A stretch of DNA of 64,000 nt from NCBI GenBank assembly GCA_022793875.1, contig JAAWDR010000033.1, positions 50,137 through 114,136 on the forward strand, written 5' to 3'. Source of the DNA: Clostridia bacterium. GTDB lineage: Bacteria > Bacillota > Clostridia > TANB77 > CAG-508. Positions 1,957 to 41,571 of the stretch are shown here, one piece after another. The translations under genes were made by a program, and so were the position numbers. Positions within the stretch are counted from its first letter, which is position 1, and each line of letters opens with the position of its first letter. The notes under the pieces are model-generated. The model worked only from the letters and a program-made list of their open reading frames with translations, was not told the origin of the DNA and did not search any database.

Positions 1957-2024
1957 TTTTCATTTACTTGTGTGTATATTAACACTGTAAAATAAATTAA
2001 TGATTTTAGAAGGAGGTGCTAAAG

Positions 2025-3365
2025 ATGCCTATATATTCATATAAGGCTATTACAAGTTCAGGATTAATTGTAAGAAATAGAATAGAATCAGGAAGTAAAC
2101 AAAGTTTGATTAAAACTTTAAAAAGCAATGATTTAATGCCAATTACAGTAGAACAGGTTAAGTATAATAATAAAAACAAAAAGAGTAAAAAGAAAAATGT
2201 AAAAGACATTGAAGAAATAATGAAAAATGTAAATACAACACAAATAAATACTAAAAAAACATTTTCAACAAAAGAAAAAATAAATATGTATTTATCAAAA
2301 ACAGAAAAAATAACAGCTAGAGATATTGTGATATTTACACAAAACTTTTATCTATTGAAAAAGGCAAACTTTAACAATATACATGCATTAAGAACAATAA
2401 TTGATAGTACAGAAAACTATACTTTTAAAGGAATATTAGAAGATATTTTAGCAGGTGTTGAAGCAGGAGAATATATGTATACAACAATGGAATATTATGA
2501 AGATGTATTTCCATTTATATATATAAATATGATTAAAGTTGGTGAATTATCAGGTTCACTTACTAATTCACTAGAACAAGCTGTAAGATATTTGGATGAA
2601 TCAGAAGCATTAAATAAAAAAATTAGAGGAATATTAATTCCTAACTTAATACAATTTGCATTATTAATAGTAATGTTGTTTGTTGGAACATTGGTTGCAA
2701 TACCAGCAATTCAAAATATATATGATGAAATGGGATCAACAGATCAATTACCAGCAATAACATTATGGTTCCAAGGAGTAGTAAACAATTTAATGACATA
2801 TTGGTATATACCATTAACATTTATATTAGCAGTAGTAGGTGCAATAGTATTTTATATTAATACTCCAAAAGGAAAATATAACTTCCACTATTTTAAATAT
2901 AAAATGCCAATATTTGGTCAATTAATATTTGCATTAGATTTTTCAAGATTAATGAAAGCAATGCTTCTAAATCTTGAAAATGGAATGAGAATACAAGAAG
3001 CAATGGAAGTTAGTAAAAATGTTATTAAAAACTATGTAATGTTATCAATAATAGAAACATCATTAAATAACATACTTATAGGTGATTCTTGGATTGAACC
3101 ATTTGAAAGATCAGGATTACCTAAGTCAATGATAACAGAGATGCTTAAAGTAGGTATGCAAACAAACTTACCAGAGATGATGGCAAAATTAGTAGAATAT
3201 ATGGAAATAGATATTGATAATATAATTCAAAAAATAATGAAGGTTTTACCTGAAGTTGTTTACTTAATAGTAGGTTGTGTATTAATTTTCTTCGTACTAG
3301 TTGTACTTGGACCATGTATCGAAGTATATATGGGAGGATGGTTATTCTCAGCAGCAGGTGTATAA
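2025..3365 (+). CDS. pilC: Type IV pilus assembly platform protein PilC (GspF family)
   Basis: GspF-type polytopic membrane protein of about 445 aa following pilB-pilT. AGGAGG RBS at 2011-2016 supports the ATG at 2025 rather than the listed GTG at 2016. Confidence 0.85.
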   Translation: MPIYSYKAITSSGLIVRNRIESGSKQSLIKTLKSNDLMPITVEQVKYNNKNKKSKKKNVKDIEEIMKNVNTTQINTKKTFSTKEKINMYLSKTEKITARDIVIFTQNFYLLKKANFNNIHALRTIIDSTENYTFKGILEDILAGVEAGEYMYTTMEYYEDVFPFIYINMIKVGELSGSLTNSLEQAVRYLDESEALNKKIRGILIPNLIQFALLIVMLFVGTLVAIPAIQNIYDEMGSTDQLPAITLWFQGVVNNLMTYWYIPLTFILAVVGAIVFYINTPKGKYNFHYFKYKMPIFGQLIFALDFSRLMKAMLLNLENGMRIQEAMEVSKNVIKNYVMLSIIETSLNNILIGDSWIEPFERSGLPKSMITEMLKVGMQTNLPEMMAKLVEYMEIDIDNIIQKIMKVLPEVVYLIVGCVLIFFVLVVLGPCIEVYMGGWLFSAAGV

Positions 3366-3368
3366 AAT

Positions 3369-3741
3369 AAAGAGGGATTATGGGGACGGGTCTCAAAATC
3401 CCTTTTTAAAATTAAGATATTAACATTTTTGTACATTTTATAATTATAAGGCTGGGGTAGATACATATATTTTATAAAGCATCTTGGTTTTCTTACATAT
3501 ATTAAGAAATTTTAATAAAATAAAATGAGCCTCTTTCACTTAGTCCTCGCTACGCTCGACGTGAACATTCCTCATTTTATTTTATAAATATTTCTAAATA
3601 TATTTCAGTCACATTCGATACTTTATAAAATATATGTATCTACCCCAGCCGTATAACTATAAAATATATAATAAAAAATATTATTTTAAATTAATATAAT
3701 AAAAAAGGGATTTTGAGACCCGTCCCCATAATCCCTCTTTT
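3369..3741. repeat. Large nested inverted-repeat element between pilC and the ROK kinase (REP/MITE-like)
   Basis: Outer 39-bp arms AAAGAGGGATTATGGGGACGGGTCTCAAAATCCCTTTTT (3369-3407) and their reverse complement (3703-3741). Inner 31-bp inverted repeats at 3450-3480 and 3620-3650. A central palindrome AAAATGAG...CTCATTTT. Same arm family as 40515-40628. Confidence 0.7.
3448..3652. mobile_element. Candidate MITE-like insert inside the loop of the 3369-3741 hairpin repeat
   Basis: Perfect terminal inverted repeats GGCTGGGGTAGATACATATATTTTATAAAG of about 31 bp. Flanked by near-identical direct repeats TATAATTATAA / TATAACTATAA (possible target-site duplication). No coding capacity. Confidence 0.35.
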
Positions 3742-3752
3742 GGAGTAAATAT

Positions 3753-4643
3753 ATGAAAATTGGTATAGATTTAGGCGGAAGCCATATTGCTATTGGAGTA
3801 GTTGACGATAATAGTTGTATAATAGAAAAAGTAGAAAAGAGATTATTAGCTGAAGAAAAAAAGAATTTCAAAAAATCAGTGGAAGATTATATAATAGAAA
3901 ATGTAAAAAAATTAAGTGAAAAGTATCAAATAAAAGAAATTGGGATAGCTGTTCCTGGAACAATAAAAGGAGATAAAATTATAAAATCTGTTAATCTAGG
4001 TGTAGAAAATTATGATTTTGTAGATAATTTGAAAAAGGGAATCGATATACCAATAAAAATTATGAATGATGCTAAAAGTGCAGCTATTGCAGAGTGCAAC
4101 ATTGGATGTTTAAAAGATTATAAAATAAGCTTATTTTTAACATTAGGAACTGGTATAGGAGGAGCTGTTATTATAAATGGTGAATTACTAAACACTGGAG
4201 ATTTACCAGGATGTGAAATTGGACATATGATAGTTGAAAAAGATGGACTTCAATGTAATTGTGGTAAAAAAGGTTGCTTTGAAAAATATGCATCAATGAA
4301 AGTACTAAAAAACAATTTAAGAAAAGAATTGAATTTAGATGAAGCAACAAGAGGGCAAGAATTATTAGATATGATTAGAGAAAATCCAAATGACGAAAAA
4401 ATAAGTAAAGTAGTTGATGAATTTATAGAGTATTTAAGTATAGGAATATCAAATTTAATAAATATATTTGAACCAGAAGCAATTGGAATTGGAGGAAGTT
4501 TTGTATATTTTTCTGATGTATTACTTGATAGGTTAAAGGATAATATACAAAATAAAGGATATTTGTTTAATAAAAGAGAGAAATTAATTATTTTACCCGC
4601 AATGCTAGGAAATGATGCAGGGATTATTGGGAGCCAATTATAA
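3753..4643 (+). CDS. ROK-family sugar kinase (glucokinase-like)
   Basis: N-terminal GIDLGGSHIAIGVVD ATPase motif; ROK zinc motif CNCGKKGCFE; 296 aa. Confidence 0.85.
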   Translation: MKIGIDLGGSHIAIGVVDDNSCIIEKVEKRLLAEEKKNFKKSVEDYIIENVKKLSEKYQIKEIGIAVPGTIKGDKIIKSVNLGVENYDFVDNLKKGIDIPIKIMNDAKSAAIAECNIGCLKDYKISLFLTLGTGIGGAVIINGELLNTGDLPGCEIGHMIVEKDGLQCNCGKKGCFEKYASMKVLKNNLRKELNLDEATRGQELLDMIRENPNDEKISKVVDEFIEYLSIGISNLINIFEPEAIGIGGSFVYFSDVLLDRLKDNIQNKGYLFNKREKLIILPAMLGNDAGIIGSQL

Positions 4644-12654: not shown

Positions 12655-12815
12655 ATATTTTATAGTTTAAATTTTTGTATATTAGCACTTTCTATTTTTG
12701 CTCATGTTTTCCCACTGAAACTGTAACAATGCTAACGCATTTAACAGTTTTCAGCGGTCCCCACATAACATTCGACTAAATATAAAGTACTAATATACAA
12801 AAATAACATAAACTA
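12655..12815. repeat. Structured intergenic element (imperfect 25-30 bp inverted repeats flanking a GC-richer hairpin core)
   Basis: ATAGTTTAAATTTTTGTATATTAG(C)AC at about 12661 and its imperfect reverse complement at about 12783. Inner hairpin CTGAAACTGTAACA..TTAACAGTTTTCAG. Confidence 0.3.
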
Positions 12816-33573: not shown

Positions 33574-33727
33574 CTTTGTGTCAAAAGGGACGTCCTTTTT
33601 TGACACAAAATTTTAAGGGTTGATTTTTCTAGGAATTTGTAGTAAAATATAAAAAGTAGAAAATAATACTACAACTGTAGGAATTAAAAACTAACAGTTG
33701 TAGCAAAGTATGAAGGGAGAAATAAAA

Positions 33728-39941: not shown

Positions 39942-40505
39942 ATGACAACTGAATTGAAAGAAATGATAGAAAGATATGTACCATATAATGAACAAGAAGA
40001 AAATGATAAAGAAATGATGCTTGAATATATACACACATTTAAAGATGTATTAACAAGAGAAAACAGAATGTGTCACTTTACAGCATCAAATTGGATAGTA
40101 AATAAAGAAAGAACAAAAGTATTAATGATTCATCATAACATATACAAATCATGGGCATGGACAGGAGGACATGCAGATGGAGATAGTGATTTATTACATG
40201 TTGCATTAAAAGAGGCAGAGGAAGAAACAGGATTAAAAAATTTGAAATTGTTAAGTAATGGAATTTATGGAATACAAATAGTTACTGTAGATAGCCATGT
40301 AAAAAGAGGAAAATTCGTGCCTTCACATTTGCATTTAGATTGTTGTTTTTTAGTAGAAGCAGATGAAGAAGAAGTATTAAGGATTAAAGAAGATGAAAAT
40401 AGCGGTGTGCAATGGATTGATATTGATAAAGCTGTAGAGGTTACAAAGGAAGAAAAAATGAAGCCTATATATAGAAAATTGAATGAAAAATTAGCTGAAT
40501 TGTAA
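39942..40505 (+). CDS. NUDIX hydrolase
   Basis: Nudix box GGHADGDSDLLHVALKEAEEETG; 187 aa; AGGAGG RBS. Confidence 0.8.
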   Translation: MTTELKEMIERYVPYNEQEENDKEMMLEYIHTFKDVLTRENRMCHFTASNWIVNKERTKVLMIHHNIYKSWAWTGGHADGDSDLLHVALKEAEEETGLKNLKLLSNGIYGIQIVTVDSHVKRGKFVPSHLHLDCCFLVEADEEEVLRIKEDENSGVQWIDIDKAVEVTKEEKMKPIYRKLNEKLAEL

Positions 40506-40514
40506 AAAGTAGAA

Positions 40515-40628
40515 AAAGAGGGATTAAGGGGACAGGTCTTAAAATCCCTCTTTTTGTTTTAGATATATAAATAATTTTAAAATTAATTAAAAGAGGGATT
40601 TTAAGACCTGTCCCCTTAATCCCTCTTG
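40515..40628. repeat. REP-like hairpin: two inverted 39-bp units (same family as the 3369-3741 outer arms)
   Basis: AAAGAGGGATTAAGGGGACAGGTCTTAAAATCCCTCTTT and its reverse complement, separated by 36 nt. Each unit is itself palindromic (AGAGGGATT/AATCCCTCT). Lies between convergent genes. Confidence 0.7.
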
Positions 40629-40654: not shown

Positions 40655-41571
40655 TTATAGTACAGCCCCCAAAACTAAAATACCCAAATTATCCCTATAA
40701 ATCTCATCAAACTGAGAAATAGGCAAAGGATTTTCACCAATACCAGCCTCAATAGTATAACCAGGACGATTATAAGTCTGAATAAACCAATCTTTAAAAC
40801 CTGCAAAACTAGAATTATAAGGAACATCAGCTAATACATAACCACTAGAACTTGCAAAACGTTTACCAATCTCATAACCACGAGGAGGATTAATATTCTG
40901 AAAATTCCAATAAATTTCCTTACCTTGAGTATGATAAGAAATAGTCAATCTAAAATCATGAGAAAGAGTAAAATCATAAATAGTTAAAGCCTCAGGTTCA
41001 GTTAAAGGTCCGTAGCCAACAAAATCACGAGGAGCAGGAGTAGTAAAACCTTGAGCATACTTTATTTTTTTTGCATTTTCCCAACCAGCAGGAAATTGTA
41101 AATTTAAATCAACACCATTTATATTAGCTTTCCAACCGACTAGGAAAAGGAATAGTAGCAAATTGATTAGCAATATTTTGAGCAGATAAGAAAGCAGGAC
41201 CAGAATTTAAATGTCCAGTAACTAAATCAACACTATCAGGATTAACCATAGGCATAATATAAATAGAAGCAGAATTAAATAAACGTTTAATAGAATAGCC
41301 ATATAAATTAGAATTGCTATTATAAGCCACACAATAATCTTCAATAAACTTCATAAGCAAAACACTTGTAATCCATTCATTACCGATGTATAGAGCCAGA
41401 GTAAAATACTTTTTTAGTACCATTACCAAGCTTAACAACATAAATATTCTTGCCCAAAACACTAGTGCCAGCAGACTGAATATTTAGAAAAGGATAAATG
41501 CGATTAAGCATAATAAGATTTTGTATTAATAAAGTAGAATTATAATTAACATTTGTTGGAACAATACTCAT
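40655..41571 (-). CDS. M14-family zinc peptidase (gamma-D-glutamyl-meso-diaminopimelate peptidase-like), interrupted by two +1 frame changes at CGG (minus-strand codons at 41383-41385 and 41137-41139)
   Basis: Three overlapping minus-strand ORFs join as ..KVFYSGSIH | GNEWITS...ATIPFPS | GWKANINGVDLNLQFPAGW.., restoring the M14 motifs HGNEW and NGVDLN. Confidence 0.75.

Follow-up and report, generated by a model that had tools for sequence, protein, structure and literature searches.

The 373-nt palindrome that fills the spacer between a pilC-like gene and a ROK-family kinase gene in an uncultured gut Clostridia species is interpreted here, with a probability of about 0.45 and thus at slightly less than even odds, as a MITE-like block of non-coding hairpin DNA that went into the loop of an already present, REPIN-like pair of terminator hairpins, the arms of which have been kept complementary by conversion and the effect of which is probably passive. 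The outer arms of the palindrome belong to a family of repeated hairpins, the block between them is present in some orthologous spacers and absent from others, one related locus has the pair of arms with no block inside, and the two halves of the block have changed together between two diverged variants. All positions refer to the window, i.e., the whole 64-kb stretch of DNA analysed, the G+C content of which is 26%.

Results

Anatomy and reality of the palindrome

The palindrome (3369-3740, 373 nt) contains three perfect blocks, namely 39-nt outer arms complementary in 39/39 positions, a 30-nt inverted repeat (IR) and a 14-nt stem (Table 1). Every layer of the three-level nested palindrome that a preliminary description of this DNA had placed after pilC was recovered by pattern searches and self-alignment, with small corrections only. 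Since the full 373 nt align end to end with their own reverse complement, one continuous imperfect palindrome is an equally valid description of this nesting. The arm, the IR and the other long patterns occurred 0 times in 100 dinucleotide shuffles of the window.

Table 1. Features of the palindrome, of its neighbouring genes and of the second arm pair in the window
Feature	Positions	Strand	Remarks
T2SSF (pilC-like) gene	2016-3365	+	Upstream neighbour of the palindrome
Left outer arm	3369-3407	+	Terminator-type hairpin and T run; starts 7 nt past the pilC-like stop codon
Old left spacer, AAAATTAAGATATTAACATTTTTGT	3408-3431		Common to the single-arm variant L030, partly to the outgroup L056
Outer degenerate part of the insert IR	3432-3449		Contains the left 'direct repeat' TATAATTATAA (3439-3449)
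Left 30-nt perfect IR, GGCTGGGGTAGATACATATATTTTATAAAG	3450-3479	+	Two exact matches in the window
Left sub-terminal stem	3480-3515		Asymmetric internal loop CATCTTGGTTTTCTTAC, conserved between the two filled variants
Inner perfect stem, left, TAAAATAAAATGAG	3516-3529	+	14 nt; pairs with 3571-3584, closing a 41-nt loop
Non-palindromic apical core, GCCTCTTTCAC...GTGAACATTCCTCAT	3529-3576	+	Recurs at L035:1492-1544
Inner perfect stem, right, CTCATTTTATTTTA	3571-3584	+	Pairs with 3516-3529
Right sub-terminal stem	3585-3620		Asymmetric internal loop TTCAGTCACATTCGATAC, identical in the window and L029
Right 30-nt perfect IR	3621-3650	-	Exact match to the left IR
Right 'direct repeat' TATAACTATAA	3652-3662		One base (G3651) off the IR; target duplication or continuation of the IR
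AT-rich right spacer	3663-3701		Weak complementarity to the left spacer
Right outer arm	3702-3740	-	Same module inverted; ROK RBS GGAG and start codon directly after
ROK-family kinase gene	3753-4643	+	Downstream neighbour; RBS GGAG 3743-3746, start codon 3753
Second arm pair	40516-40627		Arms 40516-40554 / 40589-40627, perfectly complementary; 34-nt spacer

Inside the arms, the preliminary description saw a 205-bp element with perfect 31-bp terminal inverted repeats; the inverted repeat is real, but its perfect part is 30 nt (position 31 is C on one side vs T on the other) and the element is 201 bp. Repeat search and self-alignment place this element within a longer imperfect IR (arms 3426-3529 / 3571-3674, 83% complementary) of 249 bp in full. 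The palindromic core reported within the element was found as the 14-nt inner stem and its 41-nt loop; the conserved stem of the insert reads GATACATATATTTTATAAAGCATC, and the apical core can also be delimited as GCCTCTTTCAC...GTGAACATTCCTC. As for the 11-bp direct repeats said to flank the element, their near-identity is correct (10/11), which is not the case for their standing as an independent target duplication: TATAATTATAA is nearly its own reverse complement, so that an IR running on beyond its perfect part yields such repeats automatically. In L029, one of the diverged variants that carry the insert, the flanks match in 14/17 positions as an inverted repeat vs 5/11 as a direct repeat.

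As RNA, the palindrome is predicted to form the very long stem-loop that had been expected, and to do so on either strand: the plus strand of 3360-3752 folds to -164 kcal/mol (z = -18.6) and the minus strand of the palindrome to -184 kcal/mol, its DNA fold being -105 kcal/mol. An assembly artefact is ruled out by the identical 373 nt in three independent assemblies (ENA, JGI, ENA) of near-identical strains, by the right half of the palindrome in a fourth, the NCBI contig, and by the diverged second variant. Many Logan contigs end inside the right arm, 42 nt before ROK, as is to be expected where a perfect inverted repeat exceeds the assembler k-mer. The pilC-ROK spacer is without any called gene in every assembly examined, and coding potential, including that for a small toxin, was rejected, given that the ORFs wholly inside the element measure 20-31 aa and show no conservation between window and L029.

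Outer arms and their family

The left arm has the form GGGATT-AT-GGGGACGGGTCTC-AAAATCCC, with a lower stem AAAGA/TTTTT followed by a T run. Folded alone it is predicted to reach -18.3 kcal/mol (z -5.2) with 17 pairs followed by UUUUU, whilst the right arm reaches -17.9 kcal/mol on the minus strand vs -11.1 on the plus strand, i.e., its strong RNA-hairpin orientation is minus. The drop from -18 to -11 kcal/mol in the opposite orientation arises because G-U pairs become C-A mismatches. On its predicted fold, the left arm has the features of an intrinsic (Rho-independent) terminator: a G+C-containing stem-loop and a U run, just past a gene. A simple terminator scan with a loop limit of 3-8 nt misses it, the loop being of 17 nt on the 6-bp-stem reading.

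The second arm pair of the window lies between NUDIX (39942-40505, +) and M14 peptidase-like (40655-41173, -) genes, which are convergent, so each arm faces its own gene. The preliminary description had put this hairpin, given as 40515-40628, in the same family as the arms at pilC, at about 85% identity; membership was confirmed, whilst the difference is 4/39 positions, or ~90% identity, and the arms span 40516-40627. The arms match in 39/39 positions within each of the two loci vs 35/39 between them. As a profile search of the 64-kb window returned only these four arms at two loci, the name REP-like suits the arms in architecture and not in abundance.

That the outer arms are a repeated hairpin family, as had been claimed, follows from the second window locus and from related genomes. 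An exact-motif scan of the GTDB representative genomes found the arm motif in 9 loci of six related low-GC gut Clostridia MAGs, two further matches in high-GC genomes being due to chance. In the related MAGs some arms stand alone and others form inverted pairs separated by ~23-25 nt, with 1-2 exact loci per MAG; the spacers of different pairs are unrelated in sequence. With few exceptions, the G-rich-oriented arms of the related loci begin 4-13 nt past the stop codon of a gene on their own strand. At a second site, upstream of polA, the arm is single in one genome (L020) and paired in others (L012, L015, L018).

Arm pairing was compared by anchored flank pairing, and the family was searched for with a hand-anchored nhmmer profile. 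The top of the arm is conserved over 28-29 nt, GGGAT(T)-N1-2-GGGGACNGGTCT-N-AAAATCCC, and changes in the lower stem affect both of its sides at once (GA/TC, TA/TA or TC/GA; in L019 a 16-bp extension; in the more distant genome L032, upstream of ROK, GGAATT/AATTCC). In a MAFFT alignment of the arms the 28- and 29-nt variants fell out of register, which made RNAalifold and pair counts uninformative. In the distant genome (L032:9912-9978) the gene upstream of ROK is not pilC, yet the ROK start is preceded at ~20 nt by the compensated arm variant TAGGAATTGGGGACGAGTTAAAATTCCTA and a T run, with a separate terminator hairpin ahead of them.

Orthologous sites with and without the insert

The pilC-ROK junctions of other variants were recovered via their ROK and PilC homologues. 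Filled sites, with an insert of ~250-270 nt, are those of the window type and of L029, L036 and L037 (the ROK gene of L029 is 88.7% identical in DNA). Single-arm sites, which consist of a diverged arm, a T run and the RBS, are those of L035, of the L030-type (L030, L031, L047-L051) and of the L038-type (L038, L052-L055). The outgroup L056, the PilC and ROK proteins of which are 86% and 77% identical to those of the window, has a decayed left arm, a 26-nt spacer and a near-canonical right arm, i.e., the pair with no insert. The empty sites that the preliminary description had proposed to look for thus exist at orthologous pilC-ROK positions, both in L056 and in the three single-arm variants, and the sequence comparison supports reading the long block between the paired hairpins as an insertion/deletion polymorphism.

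Since L056 has the pair and no insert, the arm pair predates the insert. The left arm, in diverged form, occupies the same place in all orthologous variants, and the right arm is identical in the window, L029 and L036 despite a 12% difference in ROK. In L030, which retains the left spacer to the equivalent of window position 3431, AATCCCTTTTTAAAATTAGTATTAATAACATTTTGT leads straight into GGAG and the ROK start, and the L056 spacer carries ATATAAACATT where the window has its left spacer. As empty sites for the 201-bp element the single-arm variants are not clean, since the block they lack takes in the right arm; nor does the comparison with L056 fix the insertion boundaries, since a best-single-deletion scan of the window spacer against it gave a plateau of equally good deletions of 267-276 nt.

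Immediately downstream of ROK, from the transketolase-like gene onward, L029, L047 and L050 are 97-99% identical to the window (L029 and L050 98-99%), in contrast to 88-92% across the pil genes and ROK, so the pil-ROK block exists within one species in several diverged variants that recombine. On a ROK tree the filled variants are not monophyletic (the window groups with L035 at 90% bootstrap), hence repeated loss, repeated gain or recombination is needed; as the block recombines within the species, a single old event followed by recombination could give the observed pattern.

Three observations concern the material itself. The assembly GCA_949744685.1 holds a filled window-type (L046) and a single-arm L030-type (L050) ROK junction on different contigs, so this bin mixes two strains or variants. 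In one L038-type locus (L053:1844-2773) ROK is called as fragments of 44 and 151 aa with an in-frame stop, which may be a pseudogene or a sequencing error. The first 45 bases of L029 (L029:1-45; ERZ13692132 NODE_12344) are an untrimmed Illumina adapter, GTGACTGGAGTTCAGACGTGTGCTCTTCCGATCT, which runs without a break into the left part of the insert.

Concerted change of the two halves

The inserts of the window and L029 share 86% identity. The stem differs by five double-sided compensatory pairs and by a mirrored indel of 2-3 nt, and no pair of the core stem is broken. The tip of the IR changes from GGCTGGGGTAGATAC in the window to GGACTAGGTGATAC in L029 on both sides, the terminal IR being perfect over 30/30 positions in the former and 33/33 in the latter, whilst neither the asymmetric internal loop nor the sequences on either side of the variable apex centre have changed. 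The two variants make a clean natural example of concerted arm change in a stem of more than 100 bp. Replication template switching creates and maintains hairpins (PMC8794818, PMC8604942), and from two sequences only, conversion by this route is not separable from selection for pairing. Counts of G-U pairs gave no clear strand bias or preference for an RNA in the insert stem.

Further copies and mobility

The preliminary description proposed counting copies of the terminal IR and of the arm; the arm does occur elsewhere, as seen above, whilst the IR does not in any of the data searched. No second copy of the insert IR was found in the 64-kb window or in ~180 kb of related loci, and an exact-pattern scan of the GTDB representative genomes with the IR tip gave 0 matches. 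Seven matches to the tip in JGI metagenome contigs were dismissed as chance, lying in unrelated DNA of 40-58% GC. IMG/VR was scanned for the arm, for the core and for the repeat in both its versions, with 0 matches, and BLAST of the element against plasmids and phages gave nothing, or AT-rich noise only. These negatives on IR copies are weak, because the scans required exact 18-19-mers, the tips are variant-specific, MAGs break at palindromes, and the coverage of the genome itself comprised the window and ~6 kb of upstream flank (L001). Among the 15 ORFs scanned, of ~60 in the window, none encodes a transposase or a RAYT (IS200-like Y1; for background see PMC6006769), and no insertion-sequence ends matching those of the insert were found in the window.

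The insert has the size (201 bp, or 249 bp in full), the non-coding character and the terminal IRs of a MITE, and an orthologous site with no insert. The earlier idea of a mobile element in a REP-like hairpin is borne out as far as the insertion/deletion polymorphism between the arms goes; its identification as a MITE is not, there being no other IR copy in the searched data and the flanking repeats failing in L029.

Other palindromes and putatively exchangeable modules

The only part of the insert found in a second context is the apical core, which recurs in L035 (Table 1) in another intergenic setting and with different flanks. It follows there a hairpin, TGTGTCAAAGGGGACGCCCTTTTTTGACACA (L035:1442-1472), that replaces the last two ROK codons; with 2 substitutions, the same hairpin is the terminator hairpin TGTGTCAAAAGGGACGTCCTTTTTTGACACA that stands in the window at 33577-33607, between the M24 peptidase and efp genes. 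Here, too, a terminator module is repeated in a setting of a different kind. At L011:1153-1427, between a pyruvate formate-lyase-like gene and the gene of its activating enzyme (both named by sequence), an arm pair encloses a different non-coding insert of 196 nt with its own 21-nt IR, ATAGTTATATATATTAAAATA. The window also has a 134-nt palindrome at 12671-12804, between the M23 peptidase and CtpB-like protease genes, with 38-nt arms 82% complementary and an inner stem CTGAAACTGT/ACAGTTTTCAG. In a near-identical strain (L004, 8936-9001), 66 unrelated AT-rich bases stand in place of ~199 nt that include this palindrome, the flanks being 100% identical. By such comparisons, the spacers between genes of this lineage resemble mosaics made up of hairpin modules that can be exchanged.

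Discussion

According to the interpretation preferred here, the arms would be copies of a ~39-nt intrinsic-terminator-type hairpin that forms a small family across the intergenic spacers of one clade of uncultured low-GC gut Clostridia, the left arm being the old resident hairpin at pilC-ROK and the inverted pair being older than the insert. A foreign, near-perfect hairpin block of ~250-270 bp would then have entered the AT-rich spacer of the pair in some pil-ROK variants, and we infer that it arrived by transposition-like insertion into the extruded loop; its shape is MITE-like (~200-250 bp, perfect IRs of 30-33 bp, no ORF). The three other variants would have lost the right arm, together with the insert if it was ever present, most likely via slippage at short direct repeats. 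Thereafter, template switching or gene conversion would have kept both the halves of the block and the arms complementary, possibly aided by selection for the hairpin. Against this reading stand the lack of a demonstrable target-site duplication and the single IR in the searched data.

The main effect of the insertion would be passive, in that the pilC-ROK spacer, of ~46-116 nt otherwise, becomes 387 nt long. In addition, the predicted -164 kcal/mol hairpin directly before the ROK RBS is likely to act as a target of RNase III and as a barrier to read-through.

It is also conceivable, if unlikely, that the palindrome grew in place: non-palindromic DNA, e.g., the core and one flank, would have landed beside the resident terminator, and template switching would have copied one side, thereby giving rise to the right-hand arm and to the insert's right half with no transposable unit involved. 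The mechanism is documented (PMC8794818, PMC8604942) and much is consistent with it, i.e., the continuity of the palindrome over its entire 373 nt, arms more alike within (39/39) than between (35/39) loci, the unrelated spacers of different pairs, the recurrence of the single/paired polymorphism at polA, the absence of other insert copies from the searched data, and half-to-half changes that form mirrored clusters of the kind expected from a conversion tract. However, the L056 pair makes the right arm older than the insert, and at least ~100 nt of the left half have no local source in any of the empty variants. Complementarity is moreover uneven, with perfect stretches of 39, 30 and 14 nt beside segments only half to three-quarters complementary, and the asymmetric internal loop, which homogenisation should have erased, is identical in both filled variants.

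An improbable alternative is a function of the insert as a structured RNA, be it a small antisense RNA gene or a ROK leader, with its hairpin under selection and the arms as insulating terminators that block inward transcription. This would account for the compensatory substitutions along the stem, for the conserved internal loop and apex, and for an insert divergence of 14% vs 24% at ROK third codon positions; each arm also turns its strong terminator orientation to transcripts from outside, and promoter-like hexamers on both sides point into the core. The promoter-like sites are nevertheless 7 vs 5.0 expected from shuffles, and one candidate -10 box is altered in L029 by a compensatory change. 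The covariation of two sequences is accounted for equally well by concerted mutation, G-U pairs lack a clear strand bias, and three closely related variants do without the insert. Rfam gave no match, only chance-level scores far under gathering, and none at E<=1 in L029, L035 or L056; a known RNA family (6S RNA, riboswitch, small RNA) was dropped for want of such support.

We hold it equally doubtful that the element is a classical MITE, i.e., a 201-bp TIR element mobilised by a transposase in trans and duplicating a 10-11-bp target on insertion. Its 30-bp perfect terminal repeats, the 10/11 flanking direct repeats and the lack of an ORF suit such an element, as does the L056 spacer, where AATTATAAAATA occurs once, as the junction expected after excision would. 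Yet the direct repeat, nearly self-complementary, is not independent of the IR and is absent in L029, and excision of the element with one repeat leaves a spacer of 81 nt vs 26 nt in L056, a comparison that does not confirm such boundaries; neither other copies nor matching transposon ends were found in the data searched.

More improbable still, even taken jointly, are portable hairpin cassettes inserting "hairpin into hairpin", whereby arms, 250-bp stem block and apical core would be separate modules moved or exchanged between spacers, landing in the single-stranded loops of extruded palindromes with the arms then kept perfect by conversion, and a terminator-acting protein that would bind the arm top GGGGACNGGTCT (GGGATT/AATCCC stem).

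REP, BIME and REPIN elements are known from Enterobacteria and Pseudomonas. The arms resemble them as short imperfect extragenic palindromes just past stop codons in operons, single or in inverted pairs with a short spacer, and the occurrence of single arms where relatives have pairs matches the idea that single copies are decayed pairs. Those elements, however, number tens to hundreds per genome, whilst the arms have two loci in the 64-kb window and 1-2 exact ones in each related MAG, where fragmentation may hide copies. In the present family, moreover, it is the top of the hairpin that is conserved and the lower stem that varies, and each unit looks like a complete intrinsic terminator with its T run.

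Some insertion sequences, such as IS1397, ISKpn1 and IS110-family elements, target REP/BIME loops, and the arrangement at pilC-ROK is alike in having a foreign element in the spacer between two inverted extragenic hairpins; the insert differs from them in having neither a transposase gene nor a proven target duplication nor another known copy. Long-hairpin MITEs of bacteria include the Correia elements of Neisseria, RUP of Streptococcus pneumoniae and ERIC/IRU. With these the insert shares a size of 100-250 bp, long terminal IRs, the lack of an ORF, an intergenic location, presence or absence among strains and, by analogy, a potential effect on transcript processing, but those families are present in tens to hundreds of copies and their target duplications are defined, and for the insert neither is shown. 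Hairpins made by template switching (PMC8794818, PMC8604942) have in common with this locus the mirrored multi-base changes, the persisting perfect blocks and the homogenisation of arms within a locus, but the stems treated in those papers are short, as opposed to one of more than 100 bp with sequence lacking a local source.

The kind of element is thus a known one (REP/REPIN plus MITE-like), whilst the hairpin family described in this work is an undescribed one, and current views of REP- or MITE-like repeats are not overturned. As perfect IRs of at least 31 nt break short-read assemblies at the sites where they occur, MAG collections systematically contain too few elements of this type. Should the modular reading be right, the intergenic spacers of these uncultured gut Clostridia would be assembled from exchangeable hairpin cassettes able to couple or uncouple neighbours such as the pilus operon and the ROK kinase.
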